Below are positions 10,414 to 60,170 of a DNA stretch of 64,000 nucleotides, piece after piece (within the stretch, counting starts at the first letter, position 1; the number at the start of each line of letters is the position of its first letter). A program made the position numbers and the translations under genes. Origin of the DNA: Scyliorhinus canicula (taxonomy: Eukaryota). The stretch lies in contig NC_052154.1 in assembly GCF_902713615.1 (NCBI RefSeq), positions 34,090,322 to 34,154,321 of the forward strand. Direction: 5' to 3'. The notes under the pieces are model-generated. The model searched no databases. It had not been told where the DNA came from and saw only the letters and a list, made by a program, of their open reading frames with translations.

Positions 10414-11664
10414 TGTGGTGATATGCCTCTGGGCTATATCATAAAAGGAGGGCGTGCGACCTCCAACCAGCAGGTGGCGGTGTAGACACACCATGCGGTC
10501 TCCAGGCCAAGGTCATGTGACAAGTGACCTTCAAGAAGTCGTCTCGATATTGGAAAAACTGGCCTCAGAGGTATGCGGTAACCCATTCCAAGTCTTTGAA
10601 ACGTCTCTGGTAATTTACTCCCAAGCCATCAACGGCACTGATGATGAATGGGAGGACATAGGCGATAATGCTGATGACAGCGACGTGGAGATTGCAATAG
10701 TGGTCAACTCTGAGGCCGATCCTGAGGAGGTGCTGGACAATTTCATGATGCAGCTTCACAGATCACTCACATATTTGATCTAGATGGTCCAGTGACTGGA
10801 TCAGCTCAGTCAGAGAGCATTGTTATCTCAAGTAATGAAGAGCAACTCAACCAAGAGGCACACCAAAATCCATCACCGTGTTCTCAAAGTTGAGAGGAAA
10901 AGGAGGAGAAGACTGGGAGAGCCAGCTCATCCCAGCAACGAAAACAGTCGCAAGTAGCAAACAGCATCATGCAAGGAAGCAAAAGAGAAAGTGACTACAG
11001 TAGTGACACAAGTATGGCAATCATTGACACTGGTCTTTCAATGGCACAGAGCGAAGATCAAGAGAAACAAGAGGCCAGCACGTAAACCAGTCTTCAAAGA
11101 GGCTGGCAACAGCTCGAATGAGCGCACAGGTGATCCCGTGAGGGTGGCTTAATGATCTATGCAAAGGAAACAGACACTCGTCAGGCACAGCATGCTTTGC
11201 ACACCTTAATAAAGCGCATTCTCTTTATCAGCCAAGTAGAATGAATGTATAAAGTTTGACATTCAATGTTGCCTGTACCATTATTTTAATGCTTTGTGAA
11301 AAAGGAGGATGTGGTGTTATGCCTGTGGGCGATATCATAAATGGAAGGTGTGCGACCTCCAACCAGCAGGTGGCAGTGCTGACACACCATGCCGTCTCCA
11401 GCCAGGCTCATGTGACCAGTCACTCACATATAAGGGTAGACACATCCAGCCATCTTCAGAACAAGATTGAGAGGGTAATAAGACGTACCAGTGAATGGCC
11501 GGTGGAACTTGCAGATTTCAGAGGAGTAATAAGCAAACTCCATGATACCGTGCTCTGTATCAGATTGCTATCTTACCACACGAGACTCAATAAAAGATTC
11601 TGATTTGGACATGTCGAAGTGTCAGGTGAGTTCCTTCGTATGGTATAGAAGACCAAACACAACA
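10414..11664 (+). mobile_element. Non-autonomous Gypsy-type LTR element inserted in L1; 5' LTR truncated by deletion
   Basis: 5' LTR remnant 10414-~10521 matches the start of the 3' LTR (11310-11664, TG...CA); PPT AAAAAGGAGGA; near-TSD ATGG/GTGG; internal remnant acidic then basic, with no pol motifs. Confidence 0.8.
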
Positions 11665-12994
11665 GTGGGTACGATCTTGTTTCCCTTCGTAGGAAGTTTT
11701 TGATTTGTAGGAACCTATGTGTGTTTCCCTCCATCAGTTGGAATCTTTCTGTCAGTTCTTTGAGCGTTGTTAGCCTGTTGTTGGTGTAAAAATCCATAAT
11801 TGTCAGTTTCCCCCGTCCTGTCTCCACCTTTTGAAGGTGGCGTCCATAGACGCTGGTGTGAACCTGTGGTTGTTGCAGATGGGGGTTTTGTCCCCGCCAG
11901 GGAGAGTGGGAGTGTGTTCCATCTCAGCAGGTCCTTTTTGACTTCCTCCATCAGGCTGGTCAGATTCCACTTGTGAACCCCCACCTAGTCGTGAGCAATT
12001 TGGATTCCCTGGTAGTGGAATTTGTGTCAAGCCTGTGTCAGGCCTGTTTAAAAGGCAACCACTTCAGCTCTTCCCCGTCCCCTTTGCTCTGGTTACGTTT
12101 GTAGCCCGCGAAGGCTCCAAACTCTTTCAAGAGCACTTTGATTTCTTCCATGCTGTTTCGGGGGTACCGAGATGTAGAGGAGCAGATCATCTGCATAGAG
12201 AGGGACTCTGTGCTCTCCGTCTCCTCTCCAGTCATTTCCAGTTCTTTCTTTCCGAAGCGTGATCGCTAGTGGTTTGATCGCAAGGTATAACAGCAGCGGG
12301 GGTAACGGGCATTGTGTCTTTGTGCAGCTGGAAGTACTTAGAGCTGGTGGTGTTTTTCCGTACGCTCGCTATGGGGGAGCTATACAGGACTTTCACCCAG
12401 GCAGTGAATCCTGTTCCAAGCCTGAACCGCTCCAGTACTTCTATGCAATACTTCCATTCAGCTCTGTTGTCGGCCTTTTCTGCGTCCAGGGAGACGATCA
12501 CCTCAGGTGTTTTCTCTCCCTGGGTGGAGTCATGATCACGTTCAGAAGGTGCCTGATGTTCAATGTTAGCTGTCTACCCTTGACAATGCATATCTGGTCT
12601 TCTGCTACCATCTCTGGTATGCAGTCCTCCAGTCTCTTGGCTAGGATCCTGGCCAGTATTTCCGCATCTGCGTTTAGCAACGAGATGGGTCTGTAGGAAC
12701 TGCATTCTGCTGGGTCTTTGTCTGTCTCAGGTATCAGCGAGATTGAGGCTTGTGCCAACGTAGAAGGCAGTGTGTCAATCGCCAGTGTGTCTGTGAACAT
12801 GTCCCTCAGATGCGGGAACAGCGCTATCGCGAATCTTTTCCAGAAGGAGACAGAGAGCACAGAGTCTCTCTCTATGCGGATGATCTGCCGTGAAATCGAC
12901 CGGTCCCGGAGCCTTCTCCGCCTGCTTGGACCTGATATTCTCCATGACTTCTCCCAGTTCTAGCGGCGTTTCCAGGCCCCGTCTCCTATCAATA

Positions 12995-13281
12995 ATCTTT
13001 ATTATCACAAGTAGGCTTACATTAACACTGCAATGAAGTTACTGTGAAAAGCCCCTCGTCGCCACATTCCACCGCCTGTTCGGAACGCAGGGAGAATTTA
13101 GAATATCCAATTCACATAACAGCACGTCTTTCGGGACTTGTGGGAGGAAACTGGAGGAAACCCACGCAGACATGGGGAGAATGTGCAGACTCTGCACAGA
13201 CAGTGACCCAAGCCGGGAATCGAACCTGGGACCCTGGAGCTGTGAAGCAACTGTGCTAACCACCGTGCTACTGAGTTGCCC
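12995..13281 (-). mobile_element. Chimeric SINE: HE1/V-SINE head and core plus 'tail Z'
   Basis: V-SINE head and core continue into CTTTTCACAGTAACTTCATTGCAGTGTTAATGTAAGCCTACTTGTGATAATAAA. Confidence 0.8.
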
Positions 13282-19715: not shown

Positions 19716-20600
19716 GGGTGGGATTCTTGATCGGCCAATGCCAAAATCGGGGAAGGCGGTTGGGCGGAGAATTGGTTTTGAGGCGGAAATCGTGACAGGT
19801 GCCGGATTCACGGCAAATCACAATTCTCCGTTGCCTCGACAGCGGCGTCAATGCGTTCCACTCCACACATTTGCATAGCAGGCCTGACCCGGCATTCTCT
19901 GGGGCCTCCACAATTCTCTGCCCCCACTGGGGGGAATTCCCGACATCGAGGTTCACTTGTGCTTTTAAAAATTGAGAAACCAGCGCCTTGGCTGATGAGG
20001 GAGAGAGAGGAGGTAGGACATGGAGAGGCGTGACCGTGGGTGCCGGTCCTGTCACTGGCTGGGGTGGGTGGGTGGGGTACGGTGATGAGTGGAAGGAGCA
20101 TGGGACTGGGGTGACCGCCCCATGTGATTGGGGTGGTGTCCAGGCATGGATCACCATTGCCGAGGCCTGCGCACCCCTATGACCACCCACCTTAGCCCCT
20201 GGTTCTGCAGTACCATCAGCTGTATGTGTGCTCCCACCCCAGCCCCCACTCTCCCATCCCACCAACACCCCGCACCCCTCCAACATCCATACCAACCCTC
20301 ATCAACAGGCCGCCATCCACTGCCGGGGCATCTCATGGCACACCCAAAGGGGGACACAGGGGGCACCGGTGGGGGCTGCGGAGCGTACTACTGGCATGGG
20401 CAGCGGTACACCTGACAGCAGGGACGGGCACCAGGGATACAGGTGCCGGGCACCAATGGAACTAGGGATGGGGGGGGGTGAGGGGAGGGGGGGTATGCGG
20501 GGCCAGGGTTTGCAGTGTCAAAGGGGCCACCATGTAGCTCGGCGGACCTGATGGGGTTACGCACCATGCTAACATGTCAGCCTTGCACCCTCTGCAGATA

Positions 20601-21850
20601 ACGGATATTGGAATACAGCCAGCAATGGTGCTCTTCTGGTCGCTGCAGCCCTGCTGGACACACTGCAGCAGTATGAGCTGGAGCTGTTCGAGGACGAGGA
20701 AGCTGCATTAGTGCAGCATTCATCAGTGGAACAGGAGATAGTCGCTGAGGATGGAGAGCCGGCCGCCCAACAGGCCGAGGAGGCGGCGGTGCCAAGGAGG
20801 CGCCCTGTAAGGCCTCGTGTGTACCAGCAGCGCCTGTCATTAGAGGACCTGCCGGACCGGACATGCCAACAAAGACTCCGGCTGAGCAGGCAAACAATGC
20901 GACATGTCTGCCGGATCATGGTGCACCTCTCACTGCGGGGAAATGGGGGAGACACCAGCTCCTGGTGGCCGCCAAGCTGGTGGTCATCCTGAAATCTAGG
21001 CCACAGGGTCCTTCCAGGAGCCAAGTGGGGACTTGTTTGAGATCTCTCAGAGCTCAGTGCACAGGTGCATCTGTGCCATCATGGAGGCCCTATATGCCCA
21101 GTCGGCGCAACATATCCATTTCAATGTGGACCGAGCCCACCAGGATACCTGTATAGCAGGGTTCGGTGCCATTACCGAGATTGGAGATATCCCTTAACCA
21201 GGGGGGAATCGAGGGGATGCATGTCACTCTACGAGGCACCTGCAGATGACAGGCCGCTCTACGCAAACCGAAAGGGCTTCCACGCGATAAAACGTGCAGC
21301 TGATATGTGACCACCAGCTGTGCATCATGCCCGTCTGCGCCCGATACACGGGCAGTGTGTCCGACACCTTCACCCTGGCGCACATGACAATGCCAGCCTC
21401 TTCGAGGTGCACCCCCTGCAGGAGGGTTGGCTCTTGGGTGACAGGGGTTATCCACTGTGGCTGTTACTGATGCCTATCCAAAGGCCACAGACAGATGTGG
21501 AGACTTGCTATAAAGACACCCATGCAGCGACCAGGGGCATGATCGAGCGGTGTTACAGCATCCTGAAGATGCAGTTCAGCTGCCTGGACCGCACTGGGCG
21601 GGTCCTCCAGTATGGCACTGAGAGGGTCGCCTGCAACGTGCTGACCTGTTGTGTCCTCCACAACATCGTGCAGCAGAGAGGAGACTTGCTGGAGGAGGAG
21701 GGTGAATGCCAGGCCTCTTCTAAAGAGGACAATGCAGGGGAGGGGAAAGATGGATAGGATATGGGTCCCAGGCATGCACGGTAGGCCATACAACGTGTGT
21801 GCCAGGGCCAATGCGCTTGACGCTCTGATCACCTCCAGGTTCACCGAATT
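20601..21850 (+). pseudogene. HARBI1-like DDE transposase (frameshifted)
   Basis: YANRKGFH, GWLLGDRGYPL, HAATRGMIERCYSILKMQFSCLD, CCVLHNI. Confidence 0.9.
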
Positions 21851-22415
21851 GGGGGGGGGGGGGGGGGGGGGGGGACTGGCCAGGAGCACATCCCACCCCA
21901 ACACTTCCCACTCCCCAACTGTAACCCCCTTCGTGGTATATACCTCCCGCGCTATGGGGTACAGGCCCTGGGTTGGCAGTACCAGCGGGTCTGGTCCATG
22001 GGATGAAGAATGATGACAACCCACTCTGAGATGAGCTCTGGTGCTCCGCATTGTTTTGACAATGTCTAACTCCTGCCAATGGTAGAACTTCCCACCATCC
22101 ACTTGGGTGCTTCCTGCATGCGAGCTGGCCATTCCATTACATGGGTGTCAACCGATCCTCTGGGGTGCCAGAGATGGGGACGGTGGGTGGCACACCGGAG
22201 CAGTGAGCCCTGGCTGAACTTTGGTCCCTAAGCCAAGCCCCCTGTGCCCCCATCGCGGCCAGCCCAGACCAGCCCAACCCTCACACCATCCTAATAGAGC
22301 ACCGAGGCAGGTTGTAGCATTGTGCATAGGTGTTTAATGTGAAAACATGTACAGACACCTGCCTGAGCCCCTGGAACTAAACTGTGCCCTGCACCTGTGC
22401 CAACTTAATTGGTGT

Positions 22416-24543: not shown

Positions 24544-25769
24544 CTTGTTGGCTGGGATGGTGTGTGTGGGGAGTGAAGTGTGTGTATGCGGCTTCAGTTT
24601 GTCAGCCTCCTGAGTGTCAGTCATGAATCCAGCACCGTTTCTGTTTGGAATTGATTGTGTTACCCACGGCACTGGTGCTAACCCCTCAACGGTCGCTGAA
24701 TCGGTCCAGGTACGGTGCCAGTTTTGCTGTCGTGGAAGTCTGCGAATTCTGCACGGCGTCAACACTTAGCCTCAGGAAAGGGGGATTCCACCAACGACCT
24801 TGCATCAGTTCTGATAAAAGGTGGGATCTTCTTTGAGTCATGAACGTGAATAGGGACCATTTCTGGGTCCAGCCCTGTCTATCTGGGGGGCCAGACTCTG
24901 TGATCGGCCCATCCAATTGAGGATAGTGGGTGGGTCCTAATCAGAGGGCATGCAACCTTGGAATGACGGCAGGCCCATTGCTAGAGTTTTATTCTTCTAT
25001 ATAGCTGTTCCTGTGTGCTGAGTCTCAGTAGATAAATCCACAATGCGTTTACACAATCCCTTCTAAGCGGCTTGTGCCTTTCTATCATTATAAAAACACA
25101 ATGTGATGTTTAGCAGTGCTCCCTCAGCCTGGCAGCAGTCAGTACAGGTATAACATGGTGACCAGTCATAGACCATTCAACATAGTATGAGACAGCCCTT
25201 CACGTTTTGGTCGGACCACAACAAAACCACAGCATCAGAGCGTGTTGGATTTGCACTGTGGTGGCTGCACAGAAAGGCTCTGAAGACATAATACCTAGGT
25301 AGTGCTCAAATAAAGAGCTGGTTCGGAGATTAAATCCTCATGGTGAGATTTAATGTATAGTTTCATGAGTGGGACAGTGTGTCGAGAGGACCTGCACCTG
25401 GGTAGCTCAGTTGGGAAAGGCAAGGATCAGGATATTGTTGCGCAAAGGACTTCAAAAATAGACCCCACTGGGATTGAACTTGGCACACTTACAGAGCGCA
25501 TGTCCATGCATCGGGACGTCCGCACAACCTGACGCACGTGTGCGGCGTTCAATCTTCATACACCAGTAGATTCATTGAAAGTTATGGACTATTGAATGCA
25601 AACCAGCCAAAGTAGCCGTAAAAATTTGTCTCGCAATTGGGTTCAAAGGTATTAACATGCTGAACACTTCATGGAGTAACAGCAGAAGAACTAAAGTGTC
25701 ACCAAAAGGTGGACTACATTCGATGACCAGTTCAGAATCAGGTACAACTTATGTATTCTTCAACAAGAG

Positions 25770-42723: not shown

Positions 42724-44240
42724 GAGCTTAGTCTATGTACAGCAGTCTGATGTAAGTGTCCTTGTTGTCGAGGTGTTTGAGTTTTAATTGTGGGGCCAGG
42801 GAGATAGCATCTGCTGTGGAGCTATTGCGACAATAGGCGAACTGCAGTGGATTGAGACCGTCTGGGTGCCTGACCTGGGACGACCCTGGGAATGCGACAA
42901 GAGTTGCAGGGTCGCTCCACACAAGAAGGTGTAAATAGGGATTAACATATTCAGATTATGGAGATTGCATACATGGCAAAAAAACCTTATGAATAGTCAT
43001 GCAACATTTTCAGCATGCCACTAATAATAATATCATTAGCCCAAGGTTCATTGAAGTGAAATAGAAACTATAATGTCGCTATTATAAGCAGCTGCACCAA
43101 GCATTTGTGTGGGGACCACAAAAGAGGCAGTAAATTAGAGAGAAAGAAAATCATACAAGTTGTTCCTTACTGTATTTATGCTGTAAAGGCTGAGATTTTC
43201 CAATCCCAGGAATCATCACGAGTAGGATGAAGGGGGAGAGAGGGATTTGGGGCGTAAAGTTAGTTAAGTTTGTAAAAGCGGACTTCTGGCGGCAGATGTG
43301 AGCGGAGGATTCACATCTGGGGACACCCCGACCTGACCCGATTCGCAAAGCGTCTATAAATCGCGCTAGCAGTAAAAATAACAAAATTAAAGGGACACCG
43401 GGGAAATATACAGTTTCAAACCAAACATGCTAAAAATTAAGAACAAGAGAGTGGGGAGCCAGATGTGCTCTTCAGACTCGGAGGCTTCATTGGAGTCGGG
43501 AGGAGACAAAATGGCGGCGGTGTGCTCCTCCCCCCCCCCAGGCAGCCGCGTGGCCATCAATTAAAGACATGAGCCGCATGTGCTTAAACGATTTGATCAG
43601 CATTGCTCCCCTAGAAAAAACGAAACATTCAACGCTATAAATTCCATGCACGCACCCAGAACGTGAGAGAGGCATTCGATAACTTCCTCACTGACTTACG
43701 ATTGAAAGCGCAGTCGTGCAACTTCAGCACACTCCAGTTGTCAATGATACGAGACCAGATAGTTTTTGGAATCTCCAATAATAAAGTGAGTGAGCAGCTA
43801 CTGCGGGAAACAGACCTACAACTTGAAAGTGCCATTCAAATATGACACGCTAGTGAGCTGGCTGAAAAGTAACTACGGTTGAATGCCCATAGTTTTGCCG
43901 CAAAGGCAGAAGAGGCGGCAGACACCATTAGTGTGGTGACGCAGCTGAATAAGAATTGTGCTCCCAGTGCGGGTGGCCATTATGATATGCCAGCGATGTG
44001 GCATTCAACATTTACCATGTCCAGCTTTTGGACTGATCTGTTCCTAATGCGGCAGAGCAAACCACTTTGCGAGGCAATGTTTTTCACATCCAACAGTAGA
44101 TCAAACAGCATCAATTAACATGATTGACTAGATGTGCATCGAAGACCTGTTATAATTTTGACTGAGGGCACAGAATGAGAGTTTCTCAGAGGAGCGAAAG
44201 GTGTAAGTTACTTGAGCGTCTGTACATTTCAGACAGCGCT

Positions 44241-45235
44241 GCGACTAAGGATGAATGCAAATGGCAACAAGATGAAGTGGAGGAGTTATCAGATGAAATG
44301 GAAAAAAAAGGTCAAGGTGGAGGAAGAGAAAAAAGATGGAGAAAAGGAGGAGCCAATAGGAATTCCAGAATTCTGGTTGACAATCTTCAAAAATGTGGAT
44401 TTGCTCAGTGACATGACACGAGCATAATGAGCCTACCTTAAAGCATTTACAAGATTTAAAGGTGAAATTTTCAGGTCCTGGACAGTCAATGAGTTTTACT
44501 CTGAAGTTTAAGTTTGAGCCAAATGAGTAGTTAAAAAATGAAGCAGTGACAAAAACATACCAGATGGAGTCGCAGCCTGAGTCAGACTTTTACTTCTTTG
44601 ATGAACCGCCAGATCGACTGGAAGAAAGGAAAAAACATCACATTGAAAACCATGGAAACAAAGCAGACGAATAAGGCGAGCACTGGTAGAACAGTTACAA
44701 AAACTGTACCATATGTCTCTTTAATTTTTCTAGTCCCCCTGAAGCTCCAGAGCATGGAGAGTTGGATGAAGGTTCTGCAGCTGGCTTTGAAATTGGTCAC
44801 TTCTTCCATGAACACATAATTCCACAAGCAGTGTTATACTTCAGAGGAGACGCTTTTATAATAATAATAATAATTGCTTATTGTCACAATGAATGATCTG
44901 TTGAGCTGCTTGCAGAAAAATACTTTTCGCTGTACCTCGGTACACGTGACAATAAACAAATCCAATCCAATCCACAAGGAGGCTTCAATGAAGTTACTGT
45001 GAAAAGCCCCTAGTCGTCCCATTCCGGCACCTGTTCAGGGAGGCCGGTACGGGAATCAAACCCGCGCTGCTGGCATTGTTCTGCATTACAAGCCAGCTGT
45101 TTAGCCCACTGTGCTAAACCAGCCCCATTTTGCAGGCGATAATGATGATTATGATGATGATGATTACGACGATAACGATTATGAGGAGGAATGTGAAGAA
45201 TCAGATGATGAGCCAGAAGAGGAAGACTATGAAAG
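44241..45235 (+). pseudogene. nap1l1: Intronless nucleosome assembly protein 1-like 1 fragment (degenerate)
   Basis: ECKW...EEKKDGEKEEPIGIPEFWLTIFKNVDLLSDM...LKHLQDLKVKFS...FEPNE...QIDWKKGKNITLKT...RTVTKTV...GFEIGHF..HIIPQAVLYFRGDA plus an acidic tail; contains stops and frameshifts; SINE inserted at 44857-45126. Confidence 0.93.
44857..45126 (-). mobile_element. tRNA-SINE (variant head, tail Z) with a nested plus-strand Rex1 3' fragment (44890-44973)
   Basis: SINE tail split at GTCACAA by ...CTGTACCTCGGTACACGTGACAATAAACAAATCCAATCC; ACAA duplicated. Confidence 0.85.
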
Positions 45236-47574
45236 TCTATTTAGTTTATTTGGCATTAGGGATGAGGTGATAACAAGCAGCATCCAATCTGTGCAGGACA
45301 ACGATAAGTGAAAGTTCCAAGATGGAGTGTGCAGAGGCAGAAAGTGAGATTGCAAAAAGCAGACAAATTAGCAGAGAGAAAATCAACTGCAAAAAGCCAC
45401 TGGTAACCGAAGAAATAATCCCCATTCTGGAGAAATTGGCTCCAGAGAAGTACGATGAATTATCCTGTGCCCACAAAATGGTTCCTGCAGTGGATTCCCC
45501 AGTACTCGAGGTCAGTCCATCAAAAAACTTGCAGGAAGAACAGATCTTCGTGCAGTTCTCCAACAAAAGACGGAGCATGTATTGTTTTATCAGATAAGGA
45601 TGAGCCACTAATTCAGACCAAAGCACAAAGTGAAGAAGTAATGCCTAATGTTGAGGACATTGATCCAGCTAAGACACCGGAATTCAAGGGTTTGCAGATC
45701 ATTGATGAAGTCGCAAACTTGCCTGCAACTGCAAGAGCACCCAAAAGTATGCCACAACTAGATGCCTCACCAGTTGATGGGCATGCAGTACAGCACTCGA
45801 GCACAAGCACCATGGATCAACCAAAACTCCTCAATCCTGCAAAAGATCCAGCAACAGCTAATCCCTTGGGCGAGACTAGTAGCAAGAATTATGCTCTGGG
45901 TTCACAGGCAGATGCGAGTGTGAACAGTACCAATTCCAGGGATTATGGCACTAAAGCCAAGTAGAAAAGGAGAAAGAAAAAGCATCATTTCAAAAGTTTC
46001 AAAAGGCTGATAGAGTTGGTGACTCAAAGACCAGAAAGAAAACTGGTCCTTCAAAAAAAGAAACAAGATTACGTATTCGGCCAATGCTCAGGAGACGAAC
46101 CAGAATATGGTGTTAACCTGAAAGATTGAACATGTAGTGAACTGTGCACAGGGTCACATGTATATAGTTATTCATATCATGTTGAAATGTGAAAAATAAT
46201 TTAACGCTTGTAAATTATTTTCTTTTACAAAGGAATGGGGATGCGATGATATGCATGATGTAAATTTGTAAATATTATGCATGAACTCCGACCACTGGGT
46301 GGCATTGTAAACACCATGTGATCTGGGAGTTGGGAGTTGGTCATGCTGGGAGATAGATGTATTTGCAGTAGTTCCACGGGAGTTGTTTAGTGTTAATTGT
46401 TAGTTTATTTATCCTAGTTATCTCACCACACAGTTTGTTCTATAATAAATTATTTTAAACTACATGTTCTGTCGTTCATCATTCACTTCGGCCAGAAGAC
46501 AATATTAATGGCATAGCTTTGAAAGAAAGATCCTTGAGAAAAGAGAGTAATTGAGGTAGTATTAACACTATTATCATGGATGTGAGCACATAGAGTGGCA
46601 CAATTGCCTTCCTCATGAACAGCATTGACATTATCATCATTTAAACATCATTTTAATTTAACTATCAATGGGATCCTATGTTTTGGAGCCACTTATGTCC
46701 TTTAATGCTCTCTTGGGCCAAAAGAGAAGGCGCGAGGTACTCCAATAATAATGTTGCCTTATCATGTAGTAATCAGCAAGAATGCCTGGGAATAAGTTCT
46801 CTCTGACTTTCCTTTCCTTCACTGAGAAGATGCCTTCTATTTTCTCAGTGTCTTCACACAGCAGCTTGGCCAAGATTTTGAAAATTATATGTAGAGAATC
46901 ATAGTTGTGCCAAGGACTCTGTGGTATAACACACCGGTGCTTCAAATGTACTGCATCATTACAATCAAACCAAACTTTGGATTCAGTAACATCAACCTTG
47001 AACCAACATTAAATTGCCCTAAATACCTAGGCCTGTGTCTAAATTGCTCACATACACATCAACACATTAATCTGTCACGCTATCGCCTAACTGTGTAATA
47101 TAGCCAGGTTCACTCAGTTGGCTAGACAGCTGGTTCGTGATGCAGAGGCCAGCACCGCAGGTTCATTTCCCGTACCTGAGGGTCAAAAAAGGAATCTTTA
47201 TTTCCCCTTGTTCCACAATTTCATCCAAACTGCTATAAGTGTGTCAAATAGATATCAGTACTACAACTGTGGGTGGCAAATCTAATGTCACAAAGTGGGT
47301 GGTGAGTTCTGCTGATAAAGAACTGCTGACTTCAACAATGATCAGTAAAGATCAGTAAAACATTATCTATACAACCTACTCTTTATAAGATAACTGCGAC
47401 TTTGAACAACTTTTCACACAATCACGTGTGTGCTGGTGAGTGACTTTATTTAACCTATTCCAACATTTTCCTGTACCTTCAACCCAACCAGGTCATATTG
47501 CTTCCTGATTTCGAACTTCATTTCAGTTGTCCAACTGTTTTTATTGTAATGCTCAACAAACATACAACATGGGC

Positions 47575-48004: not shown

Positions 48005-49825
48005 ACATTTAAAAAAAAATATTTTTAACTTTCTATTTTTGACTTTCTAACATTTTAAACATAAAACAAAACAATGTAAAACAACAAGAACAGCAGAAGC
48101 CTCCCCCCTCCCCCCCACTTTACCAACCAACACCCCAATAACTCAAAGAATAGCACCCCCTCATCACCACCCCATCCCCTCTCTCCCTAGCAGATCAAGC
48201 GTAGCGATTCTTGGCCTTTTGGCTAAGATGAGCGTCGGATCAGGTATAATGCCTGGATCTGGTATCTCTCGCTTGTGGAGACCATGAATTGGATTCAATT
48301 TGAATTGGTTTTTGGAGCAGGCGAGGAGCTGCATTAGGGGTTTGCCCCTGTCCACACTCTGAGCTCTGGCTTTGTAACTCTGATAAAGTAATAAAGTGAA
48401 GAATAAACAGACCCCATTTCTCAGGGAACCTCCCAATCGCCCCCCCCCCCCCTCCCCCCCCCCCCCCCCCCCCCCCCCCCACTTCAAGGTAAACATAACC
48501 TTCTCCAGATACTGGAACTCCATTAGGTCCCCAAGCCATGCTGAGGCACAGGGTGGAGAGACTGACCCCCAACCCACCTGGACCCCTCTGTGAGCAATCA
48601 GCAAGGCCACCTTTAACTGTATTAACCCCAGTCTCATACACACAAAGTTGAGACATTCACCCTCTGTAACAGCTCATAGCACAACCCTCCTCCAATGCCA
48701 CCCTCAGCTTCTCCCCCCACTTGGCCTTAACCCCCTCCAGTGTGATGTGTTGGGTAAGCTGGGTCTGCGAGGACTGCGTTTACTGCAGCAGTGAGAGAGA
48801 CAGGCTTCCAACACTTGAAGAAATGCAACTCGATTTTATTGAACTCTTAACTATCATACATACTTTAACTGTGGGTTGACACTATGCTGACTTGACTGGA
48901 GACCTGAGGCTAACCTGACCGGACTATCTTACTACCACATGGTGTATGTTCTAGTTGTTGCTCACGGGCTCTGACTGTCTCAGAGGCTGAATCCCAAGAG
49001 AGCGGGAAAACTACCGCCCTCTGGCTTTATAGTGGTCGTGTCCTGTCTGGTGATTGGCTACTGTGTTCTGTGTGTTCATTGGTCATCCTGTGTGTCAATC
49101 ACTGCTTGTCTGTGCACCATCATATACTTGTGTGTATATTATGACACAGTGATGCCATGTCCTTCTCCAGAATTTTCCCATAAATCGCCAAGATGCCCCC
49201 CTCTCCAACCCCATCACCGACAACACCCACTCCCACAAAGAGGAGGGAGATGTCACCGGAAACGCCAGGAAAACCTTCCTTTTCTTTTTAAAGATAATTT
49301 ATTGCAGATATATTCAAATATATACAGAAACAGAAAGACTCAAAGAGCCATGACAAACAACAATGTAGTAAGATATCTACACTAATTATAAACATTCCCT
49401 CCTGACTCCTCCTTTTTATCCAGTATAACCCTCGATCACATCCCCCCTTCTCCCTTAACAAAGATACGTTCAGACTAATTAACCCATTTTGCCCAAGCAG
49501 AATAGATTTTATGTGTTTGCTTTACAGGTAACTGCAATCATGTTCATATGTTTTGGTCCTGTCCAAAGGATTAGTGGAAGGAGGTTTTTAGGGTAATCTC
49601 TAAAGCGGTGCACATGAAACTGGACCCGGGCCCTCGGGAGGCCATATTCAGGGTATTGGACCAACCGGGGTTGGAAACGGGCGCGGAAGCAGATGTGGTA
49701 GCCTTCGCCTCGTTGATTGCCCAAAGCCGGCTCCTGATGGGATGGAGAGCAACCTCTCCCTCTATGGCCTGGCGTGGCGGGGGGACCTGCAGGAATTCTT
49801 GACGCTTGAAAAGGTCAAATTTGAT
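48005..49825. mobile_element. L1 3'-end remnants (two fragments in opposite orientations)
   Basis: RLGLIQLKV and SAWLGDLMEFQYLEKV on minus; EAIFRV..FASLIAQSRLLMGWR..GDLQEFLTLEKVKF on plus. Confidence 0.65.
48743..49146 (-). mobile_element. Solo LTR (404 bp)
   Basis: TG...CA ends; TSD CAGTG on both sides; minus-strand TATAAA and AATAAA. Confidence 0.82.
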
Positions 49826-52800
49826 ACTCAGGAGGCTGGCAAGCTGAAGCCGCAGATACACACTTCACTCCCCACACACACCATCCCAGCCAAGAAGATG
49901 GCAGCGAGGAGAGCGGCATCCCATTTTATGGACGCCATGGATTAGAGACGGGCGACTCTACCCTGACCTGAGAAGGAGGCTGCCACCCGCCATTGTTTCC
50001 CATGTATGGGCACAGGTGGCAGAGGCCGCAAGCTCCATGAGCAAAACCGTCCGTACCAGCCAGTATTGCCGTAAAAAACTATCCAAACTCCTTAGGGCAG
50101 CTGGATGAGTAGGAAGCACTCTGCCCCCAGCACCAACCCCCGTCCCACACACTCGTTACCCCACCGCCTCCCCCACCTGGATAGTGGCTGAACCCCCACC
50201 TTACACTACATGCCGGCACCCATATCGGTCGCCATGGTCGGGTGCCCTGGCTACTGAAATCACCAGCTACCTACCCCCTGGGCTGCATGTGTCAGGGTGT
50301 CTAACACTGTCTTTTTCTAATCCCCCCCCCCCCCCCCCCCCGACCCCCAGCCACAGTTATAGCCCCAGCTGCCGAACTGCAATGGGGACACCAACATGGA
50401 CGCGAGCCATAGACCTGGGACCCAGGACACCCTGGAGCCCGAGTCCGATGCTGACACTGGTTTCCCGTCTCAGCTGTCTTCAACTTCCCGACCATCCCAC
50501 TCACCTCGGTTGGGCACTTTAATGAAGAGGCTCCTGGGTCACTATCTGGTGTGCACCACACAGCAGCTCCAGTACAACAGGTGGAGGTAGGAACTCCCGA
50601 GGGGACGGATAGTCAGAGGGCAGGCTGACCCCCAGGGGCTAGCTGCCATCCAGGCAGGTCTTGGGCTTCTGGAACGGACAGTCCCATCGATTGTGGAGAT
50701 GCAGTCGCTGAGCCAGGGACTACATGAGGGACTACTCAGCGAGCATCTAGTACCTGAAGGTGTAAATGGAGGAGTCCAACAATGTGCAGGAGCAGGACGT
50801 GGTGCCAACCATGCCTGCCACTCAGGCCAACACCGCATAGGTGGCTTCCCCGGTGGATGCCTTGGGGGTGAGGGTTTGGTTAGGGATCAGCATGTCCAAG
50901 GCTTTGGGCAATCTGTGGGCTCTTGGCCGTGGCCCAGTCAAAGTAGGCTATGGCTGACAGCGTCGGTGGCATTGCCCAGGCGCTGGCTGACATGGCACAG
51001 GCACAGAGTGAGGTGGCCCAGTCCCAGAGGGAGATGGAGCAGTCACTGGCTGATGTGGCACAGACCCAAGTTCTATTGAATCCCTGGGGTTGCGGAGGTG
51101 GGTATGGTGGGGATGGGGGACGTTGTTATGGAATGGTGGCACAGTCGCAGCGTGATGTGGCGCAGTCCCAGGCGGAGATGGCCCACTTCCTGTGCTCCAT
51201 GGCCACGGGCATGCAGACCCTGGTCGAGACCAGAGTGCGCCTCCAGGACTGGCAGCGCTAGGTGGCGGGGGAGTCTCAGGGGTTAGCTCCGTTCGCACCC
51301 TCGTCCCATGGTGTAGCCCAGGGGCCATCAGGCACCCCAATGGAAGAGGAGGTGAAGGAGCCCGTGCAGGTGACTCCCGCAGGGAGTTGCTGGAATACCG
51401 CAGCACCTCGGACTCCCCCACCCTTCTGTCCCTGGTCTATCTGGTGGCCAGCGGGCAGAACAGGGCAGCACCACACCACCTGGGACATCCGAGCAGCAGC
51501 CTGGCCACAAAAGACACTCGCCAAAGGGGACCCAGGTCACAGGGCGGGGATTACAGCAGGCCGCCTCAACTCCTGATGTACTGTCTGGGGACCCACCAAG
51601 ATGTAGCATTAGGGCCCGTAAGGTCAGAAAATTACACAGCAGCTAAGTTGGCATGGGTGCAGGGCAGAGTTTCATGATAGGGACTAGGGCTCAGACTGTG
51701 TATATATGTTTTCCCTTTAAACACCTGTGCACAATGTTGCAATCTGCCACGTTGCTCTGTTAGATGGGTGTGAGGGATGGACTGGTCTGGGTAGGCTACA
51801 GAGGGGATGCGGGGGGGGGAGGAATGAGCAGACGTTGGGGGTGGGCAATTCAGCCAGCACTCATGCGGCAGTGTCCCACCCCTCAGCCCCAACGCCAATG
51901 TCCCCCATCCCCACCTTTCTCAACCCCAGTGATTCGATGGAACCGTGTGATGGAATGGTCAGCACACATGCAGGGATTACCCAGGTGGACAGTGGAAAGT
52001 GCTACCGTGTGTTTTGTTATTCTCTTGGCGTAGCGTAAGCTGCTTCCTTGATGTGCACTCTGACAAAGGAAGGTTCAGACTTGGAGATAGCTTCAACACA
52101 TTTATTAAACTGTTAACAATTCTCCTACTTGGATTCGACTCTCCTGTTAATCCTGCTATAGCTACTCAGACTAACGAACCAGTCTGCTACAATCCATGTG
52201 GTGGGTGTGATGTGTTGAATCAACCCTGTGTACACATTGAGTGTGTCCACTGGAAAGAGGAAGATCATGTGTGCTGTGTCCTTTTATATGGGTTGGTGTA
52301 ATGCCCCCCCCCCCCCGTGGTAGTGTCACCTCTGTGTGTATCTTGAATGCCTAGTGGTCGTGTCCTATCTTACTGACCTATTGGTTGAATGTCTGTGTGT
52401 CATGTCTCTGGTGCTCCCTCTAGTGTCTATTTAGTCTACATGTATTTACATTAACCCCTTGTGTATTTACAGTGATGCATATCACCACACCGTGGACAGG
52501 AGTCATATGTTGTCAGACGATGTGGAGCACCAGAGCTCATCGCAGAGCAGGTTGTCATCATCCTCCATCGCATGGACCAGACCCAGTTTACTGCCAACCC
52601 AGGGCCCACACTCCGTAGTGTGGCAGGTATGTATTATTGAGGGGGTTACAGGCGGGGGGTCGGCTGGAGAGGGGGGATGTGGTGGTTGGAAGTGGTGTCA
52701 ATGCCTCTGGCCAGTCCCACCCTAGTTAGTGAACCTGGAGGTGATCAGAGCGTTCTGTGCATGTTGGCCCTTGCACACCCATTGTGCTACCTCCGGTGCC

Positions 52801-54826
52801 TGCCTGGGCCCCATGCCTAACCATCCTCGCCCTGCCCCGCATCCTCCTCATCGGCAAGGTCTGGCGTTCATTCTCCTCCTCCAGGTTCAGGATGCTGAAG
52901 CACCACACGATAATGCCCTGGTCTCTGTATGGACAACATTGTAGTGGGTCTCTGCGTCAGTCTGTGGCGTCCAGATAGGTGTCATCAGCGACGGCTACAG
53001 CAGATAACCTGTCACCCAGGAGCCAATCCACCAACCATGGGGTGTGCCTCAAAGAAGACGGATATCGTTGCATGTGCCAGGATAAAGGTGGCGTGCACAC
53101 TGCCGCGGTATCGGGCGCAAATGTGCATGATGCGCATCAAATGGTCACACACCAGCTGCAGGTTCATCGAGTGGAACCCCCTCCAGTTTGTGCAGCCTGT
53201 CATCTGCAGGTGCAGGTCGATCACGCCCTGAACCCGGAGGATCATGGAGATGGCAGCAAACCCTGCTGCCCGGGCATCCTGGTAGGCTTGGTCCACATTG
53301 AAATAGCTGCATTGTTCTGACTGAGCATATGGGGCCTCAGTGGCGGTGTGGATTCACATGTGCACCAAGCTCTGTGGTATCCTGGACAGGTCCCCACTCG
53401 GCGCCTGAAGTGCTCCGTGGCGTAGAAGTTCAGGGCGACCGTCACCTTGACGGCTACGGGGAGCGGATGTCCTCCCCATACCCCATCATCTCGCAGATGT
53501 GTCGCACTGGCTCCCTGCTCAGCCAGAGTCTTCGACACATGCCCGGTCCGGCGAGTCATCGAATGACAGGCGCTGGTGGGACATACAAGGCCTCATACGG
53601 CGCCTCCTTTGCACCTCCTCCTCCTCCTCAGCCTGTTGGGCGTCCAGCCCTCCATCTTCAGCGGCTGCCTCCTGTTCCTCTGGGGCACGTTCCACTGCTG
53701 CATCATGCTCCTCTTCAAGCAGCTCCAGCTCGTATAGCCGCAATGCATCCCCCACGGCTGCGGCGACTAGCATGAAAGCCACCATTGCTGGTTGAATTCT
53801 ATATCCATTGTCTGCAGGGGGTTATAGGGGCTGACAAGTTTGCGTGATGCATTCCTCCATACCCAACAAGGTCCGTCGGGCTACAGAGTGGCCCCGGTTG
53901 ACACTATGGACCCTGCCCCCGCATGTTCCAACCCCCCCCCCCCCCTCCCCCACCACCATCCCCGCATCCCTGGCCACATCGGTGCCCAGCACCTTTGGGG
54001 CCTCTGGCCATGGTGCCCATCCCTGCTGCCATGGGTACCATCGGCTGGTGCTGTCCATGCCAACGGTACGCTCCGTGGTCCCTATCCAACATTCCTCTAT
54101 TGGGGCTACTGTGGGCATTACCCTTGGATGGGCCATGTGATGCCCCCCTTGCGACTGATTGGAGGGCTGGGTGGTATGGCGGAGGGTGTGGTGGAAGGTG
54201 GAGCCTGGGGTGCGGGGATGGTTGTGTGGAGGGTGGGGGCTGTGGTGTGGGGTAGGGGGCACCCATACAGCCAGTGGCACTCTGCAGAACCAGGGGTCAA
54301 GGTGGGTGGTCAGTGGACTGTGCAGCAAGATGGCTGCCTTGCAGGCTGTGGCAATGGCTGCCTATGACTGGACGTTGTTCCAATCAAATGGGGTTCAACC
54401 TGGCCTGTCCCCCCCATCACCCACCCTCCCCGCCCTGGCAGGGCACCCCCAACGCCAGCCAGCCCGGCCAGTGTCAGGACGGCAACCCACGATCACGTCT
54501 CTCCGTGTCCAACCTCCTCTCCCTCCCTCACCAGCCATTGCGCCTGTTTCTCAATTTTTAAAAACCCAAGTGAACCTTGTCATCAGCAATTCCACTGAAT
54601 GGAGGTGGAGAATCGCAGAGGCCCCGGAGAATACAGGGTCAGGCCCGCTAATGACATGTCAACGACATTTACTGTTATGTGCGGAGTGGAAAACATTGAC
54701 GCCGCTGTTAAGATGACAGAGAATTGAGATTTGGCATGAAACCAGCGCCTGCCACGATTTCAGCATCGGTACCGATTCTCTGCCCAATTGCATTTCCCTA
54801 TTCCGGAGTTGGCTGACAGAGAATAT
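49826..54826 (-). mobile_element. PIF/Harbinger transposon copy 2 (inverted relative to copy 1; one end truncated)
   Basis: Myb gene on plus from ATG 49898 (MAARRAASHF); transposase on minus ~52726-53808 (GFHSMNLQLVCDH, ARYRGSVH); colinear with copy 1. Confidence 0.88.
52010..52489 (-). mobile_element. Solo LTR (480 bp) between the convergent Harbinger genes
   Basis: TG...CA ends; TSD CCGTG; the empty site is visible in Harbinger copy 1 near 22080. Confidence 0.88.
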
Positions 54827-55640: not shown

Positions 55641-55899
55641 TGAGAACAAACTTGACAAACAGCTTGGCATGAAATGGTTAATGGGGCCAATAGAGTGAAG
55701 CAACACCATTAAAGTGATCAAGACACTGATACATACTCCGTAGAAAAACTGATTTTTAAAAACAATTGGGACAGAATCAAACACACCAATGCCTGTCAAA
55801 AAGAGCAAAATTAAAGTGAAAGGGTAAATCATTTGGATTGGAACAACTAAAGAGCTGGTAGAAAATAAACCTGGTGAGGATGTCCACAAGATGAATACA

Positions 55900-56714: not shown

Positions 56715-59700
56715 TCGTGTCTTAATAAAGCTCGTAGTCTCAAAGGTGGAGAAGATGCTTTATGGTGAATTTGTTCTCTCTTCAGAGCTTAACTTACGGC
56801 CACCTCAAATGCTGCCTGCCTGTGTGTCTGTGTCCTGCTACGAGTTCTGCCTTCCGTGAAGTGTCTCGTCACTTCCTGTCCCTGTGCATATATAGCTCTC
56901 CCGTGCTCCCTCTAGTGCTTGCTCAGTTGTATTGCGTCTAGTCAGATCTACAATCACCACATCCCCCCTTTTTTCTTTACATATTTTCTGTACATTGTTA
57001 AAGAAAATTGTACAAAACAGTTAGATTACTTACGGTATGTGTATCTATACAAGAGATGGTGCTATTGCATATTTTACAAAGCCAATTTATATTTGAGTCC
57101 AATCTTAATAAAAACATTTATGAGTCCAAACTTGATGAATTTGTTCACTGAGTTTTTTCTTTTGTTGTTGTTGACGCGGTGAATGTTGTCGGTGTTCTTG
57201 TTATTTTAAGTAACCAATGCGTCATCCCGAGGTGTTTGCATGGTCGAACCACTGATGTTGACTGACATGGACTTTTTTCTGTGTTTGTGGTATCGATTTA
57301 TTATGTCATCTGCCTTGAAAGCTGGTGTGCTTGCTTGTTCTGGAGCAGATGTGAGTTTGTGCGATTCGCTGTCATCCCATGGCATGTTTGTAGTCTTGTC
57401 ATTGCTTTGCAGTGTGCTGTGGCATTGTCCTTCATGTGCAGCGTTGTACCATTTTGTACAAGCCGTTGTTTCATTGCTGTTGTTTCTGTCGTTCCTGTCT
57501 TTGTTGTTTTCGTTGCCGTTCTTGTTGCTGTTTTTGTCGTTTCTGTCTTTGTTGTTGTCGCTATCTTTGTTATGCTTCTTGTTGGTTTTATTGTTCTTCT
57601 TGTAGTTTTTGTCGTTGTGCTTGTAGTTTTTGTTGGTGGTCTTGTTGTTCTTGTTTCTGCAGTGCTTCTTGCGATTTTTGTTGTTCTTGTCCCGCTTCAT
57701 GTTGCTTTTGTTCTTGCTGTTGTTGTTCTCGTTTCTGCTGTGCTTCTTTTGCCTTTTGTTTTTCTTATTATGCTCAATGAGTGTCCAGTGTGGATAATTT
57801 GAGTCATTGAACGTTTCGTCTCGAGAATGGTGAGAATGATCTGATGTTGCATTGATGCTGGTGACATCAGTCATTTGTGGTGGATTTGATTCGTCGTCTT
57901 TGCTTTCTTGGTGCTCCTCTTCTGGAGTCAAATTCTTCACGATTTCATTTGACGCGGTCTCTCTGGACTCTTGGTGCTCCTCGTCCCGAGTCAAAATCTT
58001 CATGATTTCTGTTGATGTGGTCTCACTGGACTCTTGGTGCTCCTCTTCTGGAGTCAAAATCTTCATGGTTTCTGTTGATGTGGTCTCACTGGACTCTTGG
58101 TGCTCCTCTTCTGGAGTCAAAATCTGCATGGTCTCTATTGGCATGGTCTCTCTGGACTCTTGGGTGGCCCTACTCTGTGCTTCTGTACAGACAAGCTGAG
58201 AACTGTCAGTCTCACTGTGATCCTGTACCTCCTGTATGTCGAGTGTGATCACCTTGTCACTGTTTCTGCATGCAGTGGATATATGTACATTGTCTTCTTC
58301 TTGTTTATGTGAGCTTGGTAGACTTTCATAGTCTGCGTGCGGTTGCTCAGATACGGCGGGTTGACCTTCATGGTCTTGTTCATGCATGGTGTTCGCCAGG
58401 GAGTGTTTGCTTGCTTCCCTTTTGGAGTCTTTCATCACTCTCACTGTGGAGCCTGTCATCGCTCTCTCTGTGGAGTCTTTCTGTGCTCTCTGTGTGGCGT
58501 TGTCTTCGTCTTGGGTATTGCTGTCATCCAATTTATCGACGATCTGCCATGGCACCATGGTGTTGGATTCATCTACCACGAGTAGATTCGTGTTGAGCTT
58601 TGCGACCGTGTCGCTGATGCTGTGATCAACATATCCGAATAACTCAGCCATGTCTGAGTAGTATTCTTCGAAAACCAAATCATCTTGGTTGGATTCATCT
58701 ACCACGAGTAGATTCGTGTTGAGCTTTGCGACCGTGTCACTGATGCTGTGATCAGCATATCCGAATAACTCAGCCATGTCTGAGTAGTATTCTTCGAAAA
58801 ACAAATCATCCTTTTTTGTTTCGGATTTTTTTTTGTTCTCTTCACTTTGGGTGGTGCAGACTGCTTTTTCCAGGGTGTTGTGCAAGTTGTTTTTAACTGC
58901 TGGTTTAAGTTCAGGTGTTTTTTTGTCTTCTGAGGCAAGAAAGTTTGGTTTTACCGCTTTAAGTATCTTGTTTTCAATTATCGGGCATTTCCCTTTTAAG
59001 TAGGCGTGGTTCGGATGTTCAGACGTCATGACGCTCGTGACGTCATGCGTAGGAATCAATTGCGCATGCGGAAATCGGCCTTCCTTCACTGTGCGGTTTT
59101 GTGTCCACTGCGAATGCGCGGCATTGCGCATGCGCATGACGATCAGCAACACAAACATTTTTAAACTGCGCATGCGCGGCTGGCGCATGTACAGAACGAT
59201 AAACGGGTGATTGTAACTGCGCATGCGCGGCTTCCGTTTCCTGCGCATGCGCAGATGAGGTTTTTTGTTCCTTGTGTGCCCGAGACTATAAAATGTGGTC
59301 CAACGCCATTTTATCGCGGATTTCAGCGTTTTTTCTTTCTGAAAGTTGTAAGTTACCTTTTCCTTTTGATCTGGACTGGATTTCAGCGTTTGGCTTTGTG
59401 AAAAATTCTAGGTATTTCTTCTTTTTGATCTGTACTTTTCACTCGCGATTTCTTGACTGAAGCCTTTCTGTTTGTAGAGTTTTGCATCACTCAGTCTCTG
59501 TGCAGTTTGGCCTCTGAGCATACCGTGCTGTTCAAATTCCTTACAGTACTCTTCAAATTTGTTTAGTATTGTTTGTAAGTTGTTGCTGTCTTCAGCTTTT
59601 GAGTATTTAAATCCATTATATACTTTCCTAGCTTCAATGTCCTGTGATGAGCATTGCTATTTTAATTTCGTCTGAGGCTGCTGCTACATCATTAGCTATG

Positions 59701-60170
59701 ATATATAAATCAAACATTTGTTTAAACATTTTCCAGACATTTCTTACATTGCCAGTCATGTCCAGCTGAGGTGGGATTCCAAGCCATATCCTCGAATAAG
59801 CGATGTCTTCCCAAGTCGAATGTCCAGTAGGAGATTTTCATGCCATTTTGTTCTTTCTGTAGTTTGTTCTGAGTTGTCCTGTAGTAAGCGCCTGAAGCCC
59901 ATCCTGGTACCATGTGTTGTTCCTCGTGTCTTAATAAAGCTCGTAGTCTCAAAGGTGGAGAAGATGCTTTACTGTGAATTTGTTCTCTCTTCAGAGCTTA
60001 ACTTACGGCTACCTCAAATACTGCCTGCCTGTGTGTCTGTGTCCTGCTACGAGTTCTGCCTTCCGTGAAGTGTCTCGTCACTTCCTGTCCCTGTGCATAT
60101 ATAGCTCTCCCGTGCTCCCTCTAGTGCTTGCTCAGTTGTATTGCATCTAGTCAGATCTACAATCACCACA
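56715..60170 (-). mobile_element. Non-autonomous Gypsy-derived LTR element (3.46 kb): gag N-terminus plus novel ORF, no pol
   Basis: LTRs 59913-60170 and 56715-56961 (about 5 substitutions; left copy lacks 11 terminal nt); TSD GGAG; PBS TGGTACCAGGA (tRNA-Leu-like); PPT AAAAAAGGGGGGA; gag PPQLDMTGNVRNVWKMFKQMFDLYIIA...ILNKFEEYC. Confidence 0.92.
57206..59248 (-). CDS. 680-codon low-complexity ORF of unknown function inside the LTR element
   Basis: Uninterrupted ORF with a 42-aa duplication, a 21-aa repeat x~4 and an Asn/Lys-rich block; no RT, RNase H or IN motifs. Confidence 0.55.
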   Translation of the reverse strand: MRRKRKPRMRSYNHPFIVLYMRQPRMRSLKMFVLLIVMRMRNAAHSQWTQNRTVKEGRFPHAQLIPTHDVTSVMTSEHPNHAYLKGKCPIIENKILKAVKPNFLASEDKKTPELKPAVKNNLHNTLEKAVCTTQSEENKKKSETKKDDLFFEEYYSDMAELFGYADHSISDTVAKLNTNLLVVDESNQDDLVFEEYYSDMAELFGYVDHSISDTVAKLNTNLLVVDESNTMVPWQIVDKLDDSNTQDEDNATQRAQKDSTERAMTGSTVRVMKDSKREASKHSLANTMHEQDHEGQPAVSEQPHADYESLPSSHKQEEDNVHISTACRNSDKVITLDIQEVQDHSETDSSQLVCTEAQSRATQESRETMPIETMQILTPEEEHQESSETTSTETMKILTPEEEHQESSETTSTEIMKILTRDEEHQESRETASNEIVKNLTPEEEHQESKDDESNPPQMTDVTSINATSDHSHHSRDETFNDSNYPHWTLIEHNKKNKRQKKHSRNENNNSKNKSNMKRDKNNKNRKKHCRNKNNKTTNKNYKHNDKNYKKNNKTNKKHNKDSDNNKDRNDKNSNKNGNENNKDRNDRNNSNETTACTKWYNAAHEGQCHSTLQSNDKTTNMPWDDSESHKLTSAPEQASTPAFKADDIINRYHKHRKKSMSVNISGSTMQTPRDDALVT

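Follow-up and report, generated by a model that had tools for sequence, protein, structure and literature searches.

A pol-less catshark Gypsy lineage with cargo from three chromatin genes, one of them joined at a back-splice junction

The 64,000-nucleotide (nt) stretch of Scyliorhinus canicula analyzed here (NC_052154.1 of assembly GCF_902713615.1, positions 34,090,322 to 34,154,321 of the forward strand; hereafter the window) contains three Gypsy long terminal repeat (LTR) retrotransposons, E1 (10414-11664, plus strand), E2 (43615-46508, plus strand) and E3 (56715-60170, minus strand). Where a pol-bearing relative encodes reverse transcriptase (RT), RNase H and integrase, their lineage carries pieces of the host genes NAP1L1, ATF7IP and CHD6, and these three captures, taken by themselves, are close to certain. 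An initial annotation of the window had described LTRs that start with TGTGGTG or TGCGATG after purine tracts, and an acidic stretch followed by a basic patch in each element; all of these are present where it placed them, the LTR starts at 11310 and 60170 (TGTGGTG) and 46242 (TGCGATG). It had also read the elements as non-autonomous shark Gypsy derivatives encoding Gag fused to acidic-then-basic, chaperone-like cargo. The fusion, with a histone-chaperone piece, is a feature of the families; as for the window copies, E1 lacks gag, protease and NAP1 through a deletion that runs from a piece of the 5′ LTR to the tail, and E2 lacks the 5′ LTR and the gag N-terminus. The ATF7IP capture and the back-spliced CHD6 capture had been missed. 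A Pfam search returned no domain in the E1 or E3 open reading frame (ORF).

Element families and the missing pol

The 4.22-Gb genome yielded at least 73 matches to E1 (40 of 3073 first-look candidates scored), at least 83 to E2 (40 of 2289) and at least 43 to E3 (40 of 5095); the numbers of candidates are not copy numbers. We fetched 20 high-scoring loci for each family, together with 20 of 107 NAP matches, 20 of 49 matches to a pol-bearing family and 20 of 173 to an intermediate family, F4, all of which are selections and not random samples. Complete E1/E2-type copies have the order LTR, primer site, gag, zinc knuckle, protease, cargo, polypurine tract (PPT), LTR and measure ~3.1-4.7 kb when free of large insertions, and E3 copies measure ~3.3-3.7 kb where both ends were scored. 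Because their LTR pairs are 69-90% alike, E1/E2-type copies are older than E3 copies, whose pairs are 94-98% alike. Target duplications of 5 bp were found in 12 of 14 scored E3 copies, as was the family LTR end, and the core of the primer-binding site, TGGTACCA, is common to all families and fits tRNA-Leu(UAA). Paired LTRs, primer site, PPT and target-site duplication are all present, which fits a non-autonomous Ty3/Gypsy LTR retrotransposon. NAP1 was seen in 13 and protease in 8 of the 20 E1 relatives, and NAP1, stubs counted, in 15 of the 20 E2-family loci. Most E2-type copies have DTG or a near variant as their protease motif; the motif is altered in E1-type copies, and its Asp is absent from most F4 copies.

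Elements of the Mag clade have the order gag-knuckle-protease-RT-integrase, as in the pol-bearing family, as well as TG..CA LTRs, 5-bp duplications and a tRNA primer site. We provisionally take the cargo families to be Mag-like from gag, the C2HC knuckle and the terminal motifs. At one locus (L054), a hAT-type transposase with two long open frames (549 and 359 amino acids) adjoins an E1-type copy. At L094 (G000:C12:133099000-133107000), an additional element that combines gag with an acidic stretch bears the motif YYDSDLEFFFG; its neighbors are a pol-bearing copy and a NAP copy of the E1 side.

When the RT-integrase region of the pol-bearing sister family was used as query, both positive controls were matched and no RT, RNase H or integrase was found in 49 cargo elements. 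Short multi-frame matches in four of the 49 were set aside; the one in the window maps to a repeat resembling a short interspersed element (SINE), and the other three were judged by pattern alone. Full-length relatives with both pol and cargo were looked for among these 49 elements and 20 pol-bearing loci and none was seen, and 20 of 20 E3 relatives had no RT or integrase match within the element span, so the window copies are not simple deletions of full elements. The absence of pol reported by the initial annotation therefore applies to RT, RNase H and integrase; one part of pol, the protease, persists in the relatives of these two elements, E1 and E2.

The sister family carries gag, protease, RT and integrase. 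Compared with a cargo copy, its gag is up to 85% and its protease ~45-63% identical, its LTRs are 67-78% alike, and both its primer site and its 3′ end agree with those of the E1/E2 cargo families. Homology to complete cargo copies ends at the end of the protease and resumes only near the integrase stop or the PPT. The PxRxNx* motifs PSRMNV* (11232) and PERLNM* (46117), which the annotation had counted as a shared terminus, are present; they are integrase C-terminal relics in another frame and not part of the cargo. The cargo was not found in the sister family: a tail profile had no match in 20 pol-bearing loci and an F4 profile none in four. The candidate explanation that the tail is the integrase C-terminus of a helper was rejected on the former result. 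In the protease tree, cargo-bearing copies fall on one side and the pol-bearing sister on the other, except for one long-branch copy (Shimodaira-Hasegawa-like approximate likelihood-ratio support 85); all trees were built from copies with long unbroken matches, including 4-6 of the E3 rows. By these comparisons, E1 and E2 are decayed copies of one pol-less Gypsy lineage, sister to the pol-bearing family. A pol-bearing relative was found for E1/E2 only, and no helper with matching signals was identified for E3.

Host origin of the cargo

The cargo of E2-type copies begins with a piece that scores above the cut-off of the Pfam NAP domain (up to 145 bits, covering profile positions 62-266), and its closest protein matches are NAP1L1. 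Intronless copies of residues ~131-384 make up at least 107 matches (from 104 scored candidates of 2695). The same part of host NAP1L1 (G000:C20) is spread across nine exons, and a copy can bridge as many as 8 of 8 exon joints, with eight introns gone. Because the capture starts at residue ~131, the piece is to be read as NAP1-derived rather than as full NAP1. The uncaptured N-terminal part matches only two loci, NAP1L1 and a paralogue taken to be NAP1L4. An origin of the copies as processed pseudogenes was rejected, as there were no N-terminal copies and 20 extra NAP loci had the gag/protease-cargo layout. The 44 sequences that align over 300 bases or more line up as a ladder that descends from 87 to 63% nt identity to host NAP1L1 with shared derived residues. 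One capture followed by this ladder fits the comparisons; repeated re-capture was considered, and the 5′ part has perhaps been refreshed. A search of protein records for long protease-NAP fusions returned two ordinary NAP1L1 records only, which is weak evidence.

A profile of the middle tail matched ATF7IP of sharks, rays and chimaera (best E = 5e-34) and Scyliorhinus chimeras (12 matches in all). The captured piece, ~430 nt, has a single host locus on C23. At the nucleotide level it matches 35 loci, including the window (80%), over a range of 64-85%; none of the 20 E1-family or 20 E3 loci match in this way, and protein profiles alone detect it there. The SETDB1-binding coiled coil and the FNIII domain of ATF7IP are not within the captured piece. 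The shark/skate ATF7IP isoforms P0140 and P0143 end in DUF3504/tyrosine-recombinase-like domains instead of FNIII, presumably a Crypton-type domestication.

E3 has the N-terminus of gag only, with no protease and no NAP1. F4 keeps the protease, short NAP1 stubs and the ATF7IP piece, and its knuckle region and 3′ end are E3-like. The F4 profile matched an E3-like element at L030 (7e-20), an E2 copy (1e-15), E3 in the window (3e-10) and host ATF7IP (9e-9). The L030 element (G000:C1:157746500-157755500), which has a full gag and 93% LTR identity and stands just upstream of an E2-type copy's NAP1 part, links F4 and E3. When the E2-tail profile was run on the window, E1 scored 17.7 bits at 10526-10690 (best of 500 shuffles, 7.1) and E3 scored 21.7 bits at 58300-58244 (best of 500 local shuffles, 10.6). 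A weak sequence echo between elements had been proposed earlier. EEDYESLFSLFG is indeed ATF7IP-derived (host EKEDHESSL) and its best E3 counterpart is EEDNVHISTACRNSDKVIT at 58300-58244; EEYYSDMAELFG itself reaches only E = 0.13. In loci L032 and L045, long tandem arrays of 54-bp and related units have grown in frame within the cargo; the 63-bp units of E3 are a similar expansion.

The gag phylogeny, suggested by the initial annotation as a test of single origin, separates F4 and E3 gags from those of E1/E2 and the sister by a split with support of 99. E3, L030 and F4 as one gag clade were not rejected (approximately unbiased test, p-AU 0.69), and seven of eight F4 proteases nest among those of the NAP family. 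A gag swap in F4 and E3 is likely, and long-branch attraction is possible. The shared ATF7IP tail still points to one cargo origin: because the acidic repeats of E3 appear to descend from the same ATF7IP piece through F4, the cargo had, on this evidence, one origin and not three. The acidic-then-basic order is shared because it is homologous to host segments. Three independent replacements of pol that converged on such cargo, as the annotation's three different derivatives would require, are very improbable: the LTRs differ strongly, that of E3 matching none of the others, and the E3 gag comes from another sublineage, yet the tails are homologous through intermediates, and E1 and E2 share derived NAP1 changes on one NAP1L1 divergence ladder and one LTR continuum.

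The part of the cargo after ATF7IP matched a CHD protein in reversed order. It is a ~330-nt piece of CHD6, a gene with the paralogues CHD7-9; the name follows from the captured exon, whose best structure match is the CHD6 chromodomain (2epb, E = 2.7e-18). In the element, the end of one CHD6 exon on C7 (donor at G000:C7:209392395) is joined, last base to first base, to an exon that lies 69.5 kb upstream (acceptor at C7:209322898). The host sites flanking this joint are GT after the donor and AG before the acceptor, and transcript contigs from three of four runs contain linear splicing at the donor. Of 28 sequences in which both halves are present, 23 have the joint exactly; extrapolation puts the remaining five off by -13 to +4, with the same joint letters in four of these. 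The exact 23-mer across the joint occurs 23 times and the reversed control not once. The implied circle has ~8 exons and 1.3 kb, with both ends in codon phase. Within 140 kb of the host CHD6 locus in the present-day assembly there is no duplicate exon, with one match per exon. These features suggest that the CHD6 piece likely came from a circular RNA (circRNA), the circle being the simplest source; trans-splicing and a lost duplication are the alternatives. No back-spliced host CHD6 read was seen in the four runs, which is no evidence either way, contigs and the one poly(A) run being unable to reveal a circle. Family-type contigs across ATF7IP-CHD6 joints are present in three runs that are only guessed to be RNA, and none of the data sets with such sequences is recorded as RNA. 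Two human papers use the term 'circCHD6', one time each in the text available. The CHD6 piece erodes along the same ladder as NAP1, and ~65 residues lie between it and the integrase relic.

Table 1. Parts of the three elements, in window coordinates
Feature	Position	Strand	Basis or remark
E1 5′ LTR fragment, 115 bp	10414..10528	+	87% to 3′ LTR; deletion joins it to tail
E1 eroded ATF7IP-derived motif QEVVSILEKLASE, then lineage-specific acidic insert DDEWED...	10526..10690	+	profile and alignments
E1 basic patch KVERKRRRR	10886..10912	+	second basic cluster behind the CHD6-derived one, by position; matched by eye via intermediates L100 and L101
E1 integrase C-terminal relic PSRMNV*	11232..11252	+	out of cargo frame; pol-bearing sister ends KPDRLNL*
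E1 PPT and 3′ LTR (LTR 11310-11664)	11299..11664	+	LTR begins TGTGGTG
E2 gag C-terminal half and zinc knuckle	43615..44050	+	62-64% nt to pol-bearing sister
E2 final protease codons; capture breakpoint at protease/RT boundary	44206..44247	+	junction view
E2 intronless NAP1L1 core	44248..44857	+	87% nt to host exons; host gene G000:C20
SINE-like later repeat insertions within E2 NAP1 piece	44860..45130		window copy
E2 NAP1L1 acidic C-terminal tail	45136..45224	+	homology to host NAP1L1
E2 captured ATF7IP segment, ~residues 214-365 of first coding exon	45225..45640	+	80% nt to host; gene G000:C23
E2 captured CHD6 exon end (second chromodomain tail) to splice donor	45650..45721	+	86% nt; donor use seen in transcript contigs
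E2 captured CHD6 upstream exon from splice acceptor, ending in basic KKKR patch	45722..45979	+	back-splice junction between 45721 and 45722
E2 integrase 3′ relic including PERLNM* (46117-46137)	46060..46137	+	out of cargo frame
E2 PPT and 3′ LTR (LTR 46242-46508)	46229..46508	+	LTR begins TGCGATG
E3 5′ LTR	59913..60170	-	98% to 3′ LTR
E3 primer-binding site TGGTACCAGGA	59902..59912	-	complementary to tRNA-Leu(UAA)
E3 gag N-terminal domain only, different gag sublineage	59520..59846	-	gag comparison
E3 degenerate zinc-knuckle relic	58985..59017	-	common to F4
E3 126-bp duplicated unit with EEYYSDMAELFG, probably post-knuckle linker	58562..58813	-	repeat and profile comparison
E3 ATF7IP-derived acidic segment, 63-bp ILTPEEEHQES repeats	57906..58300	-	F4 profile: E3 3e-10, host ATF7IP 9e-9, pol-bearing sister no match
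E3 basic Asn/Lys-rich low-complexity stretch	57480..57770	-	window copy
E3 PPT and 3′ LTR, last 11 nt missing	56715..56975	-	98% to 5′ LTR

Elsewhere in the window, 658-1860 is a 1.2-kb two-LTR deletion derivative of a second Gypsy lineage that ends in PNHLNL*, and 28177-31656 is a longer relative of it that retains parts of gag, RT and RNase H. Inspection by eye showed the decayed remains of two Harbinger-like transposons, with fragments of a transposase and a Myb-like partner, at 20500-24800 and 49800-54300. Exon-like pieces at 2232-2480, 4273-4521 and 6652-6954 resemble a cytosolic sulfotransferase in their motifs, and E1-E3 may sit in or near introns of such a gene.

Reading frame, selection and possible roles

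The cargo joints are mostly in frame with Gag-protease: frames agree across the joints in 26 of 37, 17 of 23, 14 of 20 and 20 of 24 decayed copies, where ~1/3 would be expected by chance. At 519 testable sites of NAP1, E1-type and host-like copies are separated by 98 substitutions, of which 41 are synonymous, 57 missense and none a stop. Measured against the copies' own mutation spectrum, omega along the NAP1 lineage is 0.43 (p = 5e-5). None of 2000 neutral simulations gave as few amino-acid changes, and simulated stops averaged 5 (P(0) = 0.0065). Net dN/dS is 0.24-0.36 between groups versus 0.48-0.58 within groups, and private changes are neutral. NAP positions conserved in 120 homologues were kept at 74 of 105 sites versus 16 of 46 variable ones (p = 6e-5), whereas decay after insertion is even over conserved and variable positions. 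The NAP1 fold has thus been under protein-level purifying selection along the element lineage. Shared stops in E3 show a weak deficit (3 versus 9.4 expected).

We propose one radiation of pol-less Gypsy elements that made these captures, likely by template switching, that likely translated them as an acidic histone-binding cargo with an import patch, and that was likely mobilized by enzymes of the sister family; we put the probability of this reading at roughly 0.6. The RT-RNase H-integrase region would have been replaced by template switching on co-packaged RNAs inside the particle, according to the model in the available text of Tan et al. 2016 (PMC5131818), with spliced NAP1L1 and ATF7IP RNAs and a back-spliced, likely circular, CHD6 RNA as sources. 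The pol-bearing sister would supply enzymes in trans, and the cargo would be released at the old protease/RT cleavage site. As a translated tail, it would bind histones through its acidic surfaces and gain nuclear import through its basic patch, a protein role (histone-binding acidic tail plus nuclear localization signal) that we infer from the sequences; the benefit would be to bind histones on, or to escort, incoming complementary DNA (cDNA). In later sublineages NAP1 was given up, the protease was inactivated or disappeared, and gag was likely exchanged (F4, E3). Because they kept the acidic ATF7IP-derived stretch and the basic patch while dropping NAP1, charge and not the chaperone fold would be the lasting part. 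Short purine-rich overlaps were seen by eye at the putative switch points, in copies that are ~15-20% decayed.

Several observations weigh against this proposal. NAP1 has been lost in several successful sublineages, which spread nonetheless; it is absent or a stub in 8 of 20 E2-family loci and lost in F4 and E3. Its Pfam match starts at position 62 of 266, so the piece lacks an N-terminal helix that we take to be the dimerization helix, and the ATF7IP capture (~214-365) ends before ATF7IP_BD, which starts at ~402-408 in shark/ray proteins. Among conserved NAP positions, 10 of 16 acidic and 11 of 19 basic residues were kept versus 28 of 36 hydrophobic ones, which fits a constraint on the fold only. 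The selection measured concerns the NAP1 piece and the E3 ORF, and E3-family omega is 0.89-0.98, with shared frameshifts. Support for one origin in the protease tree is moderate (85), with one F4 row outside, and gag trees place E1-type rows, with weak support, outside E2-type rows plus the sister.

Some of these points suit a reading that we consider unlikely though far from negligible, namely that the cargo is filler: abundant germline RNAs would have been co-packaged by chance, and selection would only have kept the Gag fusion open, folded and soluble, with the result that neither particle assembly nor the stability of the RNA suffered. The hydrophobic NAP core is best kept, NAP1 was repeatedly deleted, E3 has no clear constraint, the functional interfaces of ATF7IP and CHD6 were not captured, and multi-gene in-frame LTR captures also occur among young Drosophila retrocopies in the available text of PMC5131818. 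On the other hand, each of the three donor genes regulates chromatin, the NAP fold persisted over ~0.6-0.75 net synonymous changes per site though deletion offered an easy exit, and the acidic-then-basic order survives in all sublineages examined.

Alternatively, the cargo could act at the RNA level, if PIWI-interacting RNAs (piRNAs) from the elements targeted host ATF7IP, NAP1L1 and CHD6 mRNAs and weakened silencing by histone H3 lysine 9 trimethylation, by analogy with TART and nxf2. Thousands of candidate copies could feed such piRNAs; in the available portions of the sources, ATF7IP is required for SETDB1 retrotransposon silencing (PMC12167477), and piRNA genes were repeatedly captured by Drosophila telomeric elements (PMC13534243). 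The constraint on NAP1, however, is on amino acids, whereas synonymous sites drift fastest and identity to the host falls to 63%, the opposite of kept nt complementarity. We regard this explanation as improbable; an RNA effect could have acted early beside a protein role. Going further than the proposed radiation, the cargo could be a chromatin-mimic polyprotein made from two mRNAs and one circRNA, with a NAP1 core, the acidic region of ATF7IP and an import patch from CHD6, and selected for handling histones on cDNA or blunting silencing, in a pol-less parasite that outnumbers its helper and seeds further catshark families; this extension is less likely than not.

Known systems and biological meaning

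Plant TR-GAG and mammalian MaLR are gag-only non-autonomous LTR elements with two LTRs, primer site, PPT and gag and without RT or integrase. The catshark elements differ from them in carrying host-derived in-frame cargo and, in older subfamilies, a protease. In LTR-mediated retrocopies, of which maize Bs1 is one cited case, pieces of host mRNA stand between the LTRs in place of the internal ORFs, more than one parent gene can contribute, and the products can remobilize as non-autonomous elements (Tan et al. 2016, PMC5131818, available text). Spliced host mRNA in place of internal ORFs and the lack of poly(A) are also features of the catshark elements. Compared with the retrocopies in that text, the catshark chimera has expanded into several large families, with candidate copies in the thousands; it occurs in two Scyliorhinus species, and purifying selection can be measured on a captured domain that it kept.

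Mouse circRFWD2 pseudogenes (Dong et al. 2016, PMC4897178, available text; 33 copies with LTR-enriched flanks, mechanism left open) likewise have a reverse-order exon junction, many copies and an LTR association; the catshark junction, in contrast, is embedded between other captured RNAs in complete elements with two LTRs, where it reads in frame with Gag. TART, which captured nxf2, piwi and aub, is also a retrotransposon with fragments of silencing-related host genes, but it is a non-LTR element that acts through piRNAs (PMC13534243, available text), whereas the catshark element has LTRs, in-frame coding cargo and amino-acid constraint.

Protein records of S. torazame carry the same NAP1-ATF7IP chimera, and no genus other than Scyliorhinus was represented among the protein-search matches to it. 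No report of the cargo family was found in the literature covered, in which subscription journals are thinly represented and from which Repbase and Dfam are absent; a catshark repeat library may already hold the elements without naming the cargo. LTR gene capture and circRNA pseudogenes are already known; what is unusual is that cargo from chromatin genes, a fossil back-splice within the element and selection on the protein occur together. Two annotated models, P0146 (mL48, S. torazame) and P0147 (cryptochrome-1-like, S. canicula), begin with cargo-derived sequence, possibly by exonization or mis-annotation.

For catshark annotation, the cargo families explain spurious 'NAP1L1-like' and low-complexity gene models. 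They also provide an anatomical answer to how a back-spliced RNA enters a genome in many copies, namely as a captured template inside an LTR element, and this route bears on the mechanism left open for the mouse circRFWD2 pseudogenes. All three donors act on chromatin, and one of them, ATF7IP, is a core retrotransposon-silencing factor, needed for silencing by SETDB1 (PMC12167477, available text). The lineage is an animal case in which a host domain taken up by a transposon stayed under amino-acid selection in the service of that transposon's spread.

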